DNA from: Escherichia coli
GTDB taxonomy: Bacteria > Pseudomonadota > Gammaproteobacteria > Enterobacterales > Enterobacteriaceae
Assembly: GCF_003334255.1 (NCBI RefSeq)
Contig: NZ_QOWU01000094.1
DNA: 7,711 nucleotides
Strand: one strand, 5' to 3'
Shown piece after piece: positions 6,692 through 7,711 of this stretch. The notes beneath the pieces were generated by a model that did not search any database, was not told the origin of the DNA, and was given only the letters and a program-made list of their open reading frames with translations. The first letter of the stretch is position 1; every line of letters begins with the position of its first letter. The position numbers and the translations under genes are program-made.

Positions 6692-7711
6692 TTACGCCAG
6701 TACGCCAATTGCCAGCGCGCGATCGATAAAACGAAATATCAGCTCCAGTTGGGAGCCATACTTATCTTCAAATGCCACTGTATCCGTATGCAGCTCGTTG
6801 TGATGCTTTCTGCACAAAGGCAACACAAAGAGATCATGTGCTTTTGTTCCCATTCCGCCCTGCCCGTGACCAATCAGATGATGCGGATCGTCGGCTGGCA
6901 TACCGCAGCAAGCACACGGCTGTGTCTTAACCCAACGTGTGTATTTCTCCTTAACCCAGCGGCGACGTTTAGGCAGCTTCATGAAAGATTCCGGAGACTC
7001 TGGATCAACGGTGATGCTTACCACCGTCTTTTCCTGTGGTGATTTTTGTTGCTGGTGGGCGTAAGGCAACGGTGCAAGATTTTTTGTGCGTTGTTTCAAT
7101 ATGCTGGTGGCGGTCTGCTCTCCCGGTACGATGTCGCTTTCGCGGTACACCGAGCAGATTTTTTCCGCTGGTAATCCCAGCGAACGACGCGATACAGCCT
7201 CAGGTAGTGCATCCACCACCTGATTGCAGACCGCCCACCAGGATAATTCAGCCAAAGATAATTCCCGCTCCTGCGTACCGCTTATTGCGTGACGGATGAC
7301 GTCAATCACCCATGCTGTCAGATTTTGTTGAGCAAGCAGCTCCAGTGATTCCGATGTCTGGTCACGCAGTTGGTTGTCGCAGTGCCAGCACAACACCATT
7401 GCGCCGGTACCATAACGGTGAATGACTGTTTCAGTGTGATGGTAATCGCCATTAGGCCACTGGCAGGATGTAACATGACGTAATAGCCAGTCGGACAATG
7501 CGCCAACGCCGCCAGCAGCACGAATCACCCGTTCGTTACTAAAAAACGGCAGCAATGTTTTGTCTTCCGCCAGCGGCTGGCGAACGGCAGGAACGACTCC
7601 GGATGGCAGATTACGCATGCTTTTTGGTTCCGGTTCCACCAGCACTCGAGGATTATGAAATATCTGTATGGATTCACGGCCCGGCTTAAGGACCACCAGC
7701 CCAAGCTCAGG
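6692..7711 (-). CDS. ydfU: Prophage protein YdfU with C-terminal HNH-like nuclease motif; 5' end truncated by the window edge
   Basis: The reading frame is open from the window edge (7711) to the stop at 6692. The track ORF (334 aa) starts at a GTG inside the window. C-terminal CACCG...DDPHH...GG...LCRKHHNELH. The gene ends 13 nt before the quuQ ATG. Confidence 0.8.
   Translation of the reverse strand, partial: PELGLVVLKPGRESIQIFHNPRVLVEPEPKSMRNLPSGVVPAVRQPLAEDKTLLPFFSNERVIRAAGGVGALSDWLLRHVTSCQWPNGDYHHTETVIHRYGTGAMVLCWHCDNQLRDQTSESLELLAQQNLTAWVIDVIRHAISGTQERELSLAELSWWAVCNQVVDALPEAVSRRSLGLPAEKICSVYRESDIVPGEQTATSILKQRTKNLAPLPYAHQQQKSPQEKTVVSITVDPESPESFMKLPKRRRWVKEKYTRWVKTQPCACCGMPADDPHHLIGHGQGGMGTKAHDLFVLPLCRKHHNELHTDTVAFEDKYGSQLELIFRFIDRALAIGVLA

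Follow-up and report, generated by a model that had tools for sequence, protein, structure and literature searches.

The C-terminal 90 or so residues of YdfU, the product of a prophage gene of Escherichia coli, probably form a zinc-stabilised His-Me finger (HNH) nuclease domain, and the motif of cysteines and histidines within them is the predicted core of its active site. Sequence comparisons and a structural model point to this reading, under which YdfU would be expected to act as a nuclease. The gene lies at one end of the 7,711-nucleotide stretch of DNA analyzed here (contig NZ_QOWU01000094.1; the window), which is part of a K-12-type Qin prophage of E. coli. Positions 5900-7711 shared 99.9% identity with many complete E. 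coli genomes of the K-12 type; in these, ydfU is annotated as "DUF968 domain-containing protein" and is followed by ydfT, "antitermination protein". The list of open reading frames (ORFs) and their translations gave ydfU as 6692..>7711 on the minus strand, with the first 10 codons outside the window; the complete gene (L001:7793-8842) has a GTG start and encodes a protein of 349 aa.

The original prediction, made from the sequence alone, had placed an HNH-like motif in the last roughly 75 residues of YdfU and a 13-nt gap between ydfU and the antiterminator gene Q. Translation of the minus strand at 6788-6916 gave exactly CACCGMPADDPHHLIGHGQGGMGTKAHDLFVLPLCRKHHNELH, and the coordinates of residues C276, C279, H287, H288, C310, H313, H314 and H318 were each verified against their codons; the distance from C276 to the C-terminus is 74 residues. 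The gap was also borne out, with GTGGAGAACGAGC lying between the TAA stop codon of ydfU (6692-6694) and the ATG of Q (6676-6678) and containing a GGAG Shine-Dalgarno sequence.

The prediction had named a profile search among its checks, and this was run and returned matches to HNH families. In Pfam, YdfU matched DUF968 (PF06147) with an i-Evalue of 2.2e-76 over model positions 1-171 of 171, full-length and above threshold, and HNHc_6 ("putative HNHc nuclease") at 1.2e-5, the latter match spanning the motif. PHROG 96, "HNH endonuclease", matched across the whole protein at 1e-170, and three further HNH PHROGs matched over the motif, PHROG 131 and 22514 being also named "HNH endonuclease". No family matching YdfU was found in NCBIfam. 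The Pfam and PHROG matches indicate, at the level of sequence, that the motif is not a chance pattern, and the interpretation put on it by the original prediction is supported.

The fold was analyzed with an AlphaFold2 model built from an alignment (A1) of 38 full-length YdfU homologues of 25-80% identity, taken from the 2,886 matches at E <= 1e-3 that a search across 1.8 billion cluster representatives gave. The model had a mean predicted local distance difference test score (pLDDT) of 88.6 and showed a beta-beta-alpha element at the motif, with strands at 284-287 and 305-308 and a helix at 310-318 (numbering omits Met1). The beta-hairpin followed by an alpha-helix that makes up the metal finger of the His-Me finger superfamily is therefore present in the predicted structure of YdfU.

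The motif was also aligned with three proteins: Gp16 of Staphylococcus phage PhiNM1, Ref of phage P1 and YbcO of E. coli. A BLASTP comparison of YdfU with Gp16 (L006:4052-4723) gave 41% identity over 59 aa (E 3e-10), and hhalign gave a probability of 95.6%. The Gp16 residues C145, C148, H157, C181, H184, H185 and H189 correspond to YdfU C276, C279, H288, C310, H313, H314 and H318 with identical spacing (C-x2-C, 8 residues, H and later C-x2-H-H-x3-H). With hhalign, YdfU 266-327 aligned with Ref 87-146 (E 2e-5, probability 77%) and YdfU 273-347 with YbcO 17-94 (E 1.7e-5). The histidine expected as general base where the first strand ends was found as H288, which aligns with Gp16 H157, Ref H113 and YbcO H32, and the metal ligands expected on the helix after the second zinc pair were found as H314 and H318, which align with Gp16 H185 and H189.

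Conservation was determined in 71 cluster representatives (50% identity clusters) covering the YdfU motif. The residues most often retained were D303 (in 70), C276 and P308 (68 each), H288 (66), H287 (65), and H314 and H318 (64 each). Position 313 was histidine in 34 and cysteine in 20, an alternation typical of residues that bind zinc. The complete set of four zinc ligands and three catalytic-type histidines was found in 48 of the representatives, the class to which YdfU belongs. In another 15, one or more zinc ligands have been lost, most often C279 or C310, and the three histidines are intact, as in Vibrio phage Cla (L005:2950-3957), so that the three histidines are present in 63 of the 71. 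Three representatives, together with PdcB of phage P1, have the four cysteines and none of the three histidines; the branch with lost zinc ligands is the mirror image of this PdcB branch.

The position of the gene is conserved as well. A YdfU homologue lies directly before Q in phages SfV, mEp390, YeP3 and Klebsiella phage 1 LV-2017 (L004, L007, L008 and L009), where the Q proteins range from 127 to 272 aa. The spacing to Q is 13 nt in SfV (orf45-Q) and in the Klebsiella phage and 76 nt in YeP3, and the two genes of mEp390 share 4 nt. A RusA gene is found zero to three genes upstream of the homologue in SfV, mEp390 and YeP3, three of the four phages. The homologues have a fixed position within the nin block, with RusA, Dam-type methylases and replication genes as neighbours. 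Many lambdoid phages carry a homologue, Stx-converting ones among them.

P1 PdcB (L002:3405-4448) is a full-length homologue of YdfU (26% identity, E 1e-44). It has PY in place of the HH pair and Q..E in place of H-x3-H, with the four cysteines retained, and judging from these replacements it is probably not catalytic. The pdcB gene is directly upstream of lpa, which encodes the late-promoter activator, an order that echoes the adjacency of YdfU and Q. A conserved two-gene module was also considered; P1 PdcA and the 91-aa protein encoded upstream of ydfU showed no similarity. Fusions of YdfU to Q (607 aa) and to RusA (447 aa) and proteins in which segments of YdfU are duplicated internally (449 and 526 aa) were seen in the databases (P0003, P0056, P0001 and P0106). 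These proteins are mostly singletons and look like products of frameshift, deletion or assembly, not like genuine architectures.

Roles for the individual residues can be proposed by reference to the established mechanism of His-Me fingers and to Ref, in which two Zn ions are bound, one at an active site with three histidines. C276, C279, C310 and H313 would hold a structural zinc, by which the hairpin is braced against the helix. The general base that activates water would be H288, located where the first strand ends, and H314 and H318 on the helix would hold a catalytic divalent metal at the scissile phosphate, possibly assisted by the near-invariant D303. YdfU would then most likely be a one-metal nickase or endonuclease acting on DNA, and by analogy with Ref and Gp16 its target could be RecA-bound or branched DNA. 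The N-terminal domain of about 200 residues would supply recognition of a substrate or partner. Since ydfU is the last gene before Q, the protein would act in the delayed-early phase, where its activity may aid the recombination or replication of the phage. By analogy, the best-supported role for YdfU is that of a nickase in recombination or replication, possibly assisted by RecA, and the same is proposed by Jablonska et al.

Several observations weigh against this reading. YdfU has neither the basic disordered N-terminus of Ref nor the NinB-like domain of Gp16, so the RecA dependence of those proteins is not transferable to it, and the Pfam match to RecA_dep_nuc (PF16786) was marginal (i-Evalue 0.018, model positions 9-57 of 103). 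Gp16 carrying H157A, H185A or H189A kept part of the in vivo phenotype (PMC12817073), and the sequences of the histidine-free PdcB branch suggest that the conserved role of the family may not strictly need catalysis. Qin is a defective prophage, so that the K-12 copy of ydfU may be out of use, and literature searches found no biochemical study of YdfU or of a full-length homologue. Single-sequence and profile HMM (hidden Markov model) searches of the PDB gave no significant match, the best being 3g27 (E 0.09), and phmmer searches of the PDB with full-length YdfU, its C-terminal 95 aa or its N-terminal 190 aa gave nothing meaningful. These searches are insensitive, and the link to solved structures thus rests on profile-profile and fold comparison.

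The motif might instead belong to a non-cutting zinc-finger module that binds DNA or protein, in which case YdfU would serve the early operon as a structural or regulatory factor, aiding for example the switch to late transcription. Such a factor would fit the location of the homologues, which lie immediately before Q in lambdoid phages and before lpa in P1. PdcB and the three other representatives with four cysteines and no histidines indicate that the full-length architecture survives without a catalytic site, and a possible second zinc module in the N-terminal domain lacks a conserved general base. We nevertheless consider this explanation unlikely, because YdfU has every catalytic-type residue, the closest characterised homologous domains, those of Gp16 and Ref, belong to active nucleases, and the persistence of the three histidines, also where zinc ligands were lost, argues for selection on the histidines and not only on the zinc site.

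Other explanations accept an active nuclease and differ in its use. It could serve mainly in conflict, by damaging or shutting off host replication, as reported for Gp16, or by attacking competing phages; that ydfU homologues occupy a fixed position among replication and recombination genes (nin) rather than a variable defence island, and that ydfU is carried, apparently harmlessly, by 1,557 of 5,426 complete E. coli genomes, makes this quite unlikely. The case for conflict comes from overexpressed Gp16, which inhibited host growth, condensed the nucleoid and suppressed host replication (PMC12817073), from the increase in ciprofloxacin lethality reported for P1 Ref (PMC4713147), and from the frequency of HNH domains in toxins and defence effectors, such as the Cap5 and McrA matches. 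No defence model in PADLOC matched YdfU, and the reading as a defence system was dropped. Free-standing HNH genes of phages are often of the homing or packaging class, and YdfU could accordingly be a selfish homing endonuclease or assist terminase in the way of HK97 gp74. Both options appear most improbable. No terminase gene is adjacent, nohA of Qin being about 7 kb away, and the homologue was in the early region of every phage examined; a gene of the HK97 gp74 type was rejected on its location in the early nin block before Q in Qin and the four phages. The homologues have a conserved N-terminal domain of 200 residues and keep the same position in lambdoid phages, in Vibrio phages and in P1, unlike the patchy insertions of homing genes, and no NUMOD or AP2-type domains were found in the Pfam search of YdfU. 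A nuclease acting in phage recombination or replication remains the preferred reading.

The N-terminal 200 residues of YdfU had a confidently predicted fold. No Pfam family was found over residues 1-158; the only Pfam match in the domain was the start of DUF968, from residue 159. PHROG 11007, of "unknown function", matched the domain. A Foldseek search with the domain found nothing. YdfU was also searched for a NinB/Orf-like domain, which is present in Gp16 and in DUF968 proteins of Listeria and Staphylococcus (PMC4118853), and none was found. The model has a beta-hairpin at 104-117 followed by a helix at 118-124 bearing L-C118-W-H-C121-D122-N123. Among 75 representatives, C93 was conserved in 74, histidine or cysteine at 101 in 70, C118 in 75 and cysteine or histidine at 121 in 75, a pattern that would be the signature of a second four-ligand zinc site. 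Profile alignment of the N-terminal with the C-terminal domain was in register and not significant (E 0.026-0.08). The evidence for a second, degenerate treble-clef in this domain is weak, and its presence is plausible but unproven. A bolder proposal is that the family, including lambdoid YdfU and P1 PdcB, consists of two-module proteins derived from an ancient internal duplication of a treble-clef/His-Me unit. The N-terminal copy (C93, H/C101, C118, C/H121, D122-N123) would be a non-canonical and hitherto unrecognised zinc module that recognises the substrate or RecA, the C-terminal copy would cut, and the constant location, last of the early genes before Q or Lpa, would reflect a functional link of nicking or recombination to the late switch. 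We regard this proposal as doubtful.

The linker between the two domains has the consensus D-x-E-P-P-A-x-F-M-x-R-P-K-x-x-R-W in alignments A1 and A2 and is kept even in P1 PdcB. K258 was invariant in the 64 of 64 sequences with a residue at that column, and the linker motif DPESPESFMKLPKRRRWV could be a partner-binding peptide.

The positions of these elements are listed in Table 1. Two plus-strand ORFs that lie over the motif (6677-7042 and 6772-6930) are without support and were set aside as antisense shadows of ydfU. Elsewhere in the window, an out-of-frame ORF with a lipoprotein-like signal (2517-2789, minus strand) is nested inside rzpQ (2467-2964). It is the known Rz1-type o-spanin gene within an Rz-type gene of the Qin lysis cassette and is ordinary.

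Table 1. Positions in the window of ydfU, its predicted elements and the adjacent Q gene
Feature	Position	Strand	Description and basis
ydfU coding sequence	6692..7711	-	residues 11-349 and stop codon; ORF list, translation, 99.9% identity to K-12-type genomes
Predicted C-terminal His-Me finger (HNH, beta-beta-alpha-metal) domain	6695..6958	-	residues about 262-349
Motif C276-H318	6788..6916	-	translation, conservation in 71 representatives, residue-by-residue match to mutated Gp16 residues
Putative structural zinc ligands	C276 6914-6916, C279 6905-6907, C310 6812-6814, H313 6803-6805	-	
Putative general base H288	6878-6880	-	
Putative catalytic-metal ligands	H314 6800-6802, H318 6788-6790	-	
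Near-invariant D303	6833-6835	-	
Inter-domain linker motif DPESPESFMKLPKRRRWV	6953..7006	-	residues 246-263; alignments A1 and A2
N-terminal domain	7142..7711	-	residues 11-200 within the window; AlphaFold2 pLDDT 91.1
Possible second zinc treble-clef CQWPNGDYHHTETVIHRYGTGAMVLCWHCDN	7373..7465	-	C93, H101, C118, C121, then D122-N123; beta-hairpin then helix
ydfU-Q intergenic gap GTGGAGAACGAGC	6679..6691	-	13 nt, Shine-Dalgarno for Q; direct sequence reading
Q-type antiterminator gene ydfT/quuQ	5926..6678	-	250 aa; RefSeq annotation; PHROG 127 "anti-termination protein Q-like", 3e-104

YdfU belongs to those "y" genes of E. coli K-12 that are still uncharacterised. With a nuclease at the position of ydfU, there could be effects on the induction of prophages, on recombination between them and possibly on the sensitivity to antibiotics that damage DNA, an effect reported for P1 Ref. 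The 2026 study of Gp16 is a ready experimental template for the questions of the substrate of YdfU, of RecA and of the N-terminal domain.

The assignment of a nuclease domain to YdfU is correct but already known, and the present results confirm it rather than discover it. Curtis et al. 2014 (PMC4118853) noted a C-terminal zinc-finger HNH motif in DUF968, and Jablonska et al. 2017 (PMC5714182) named YdfU in group 7 of the His-Me fingers and proposed a role in recombination and repair. The phage homologues already carry the label "HNH endonuclease" in RefSeq and PHROGs. In the classification of Jablonska et al., DUF968 shares group 7 with DUF1364/YbcO (PDB 3g27), for which Kaur and Subramanian 2016 predicted a nuclease function. 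YbcO is a bare domain of 96 residues with C-x2-C-H and with Asp at the position of YdfU H318, whereas YdfU adds the 200-residue N-terminal domain and the conserved linker.

Lambda NinG/Rap and RusA are structure-specific nucleases of the nin region and share the genomic block of YdfU, which lies between the genes for replication and Q. Rap, too, belongs to the His-Me fingers, in group 24 (PMC5714182), and NinG (PF05766) was absent from the Pfam matches of YdfU at E up to 10. The homologues co-occur with RusA in SfV, mEp390 and YeP3, and YdfU is thus not a simple replacement of a junction resolvase.

P1 Ref (PDB 3plw) is an HNH endonuclease that depends on RecA. Its N-terminus is disordered, highly basic and 76 residues long and is required for its activity, whereas the N-terminal 200 residues of YdfU are predicted to be folded (pLDDT 91) and the short KLPKRRRWVKEK is the only basic stretch preceding the YdfU finger, so that a basic N-terminus of the Ref type was not found. 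Ref H153 has no clear counterpart in YdfU. Nuclease activity tied to RecA filaments is a known property of Ref and Gp16 only.

Gp16 of PhiNM1 (PMC12817073, January 2026) consists of a NinB/Orf-like domain fused to an HNH domain of the HNHc_6 type. The protein binds dsDNA and nicks and then linearises plasmid in vitro, an activity that is stimulated by RecA and lost in the C181A mutant. C181 is termed a "catalytic cysteine" in that study; its alignment with YdfU, Ref and YbcO makes it the third structural zinc ligand, in C-x2-H. Judged from this alignment, it is more likely that C181A abolishes activity because the finger misfolds. The genes for Gp16 and for the YdfU homologues are early phage genes, and both have RusA and genes of replication and recombination in their vicinity.
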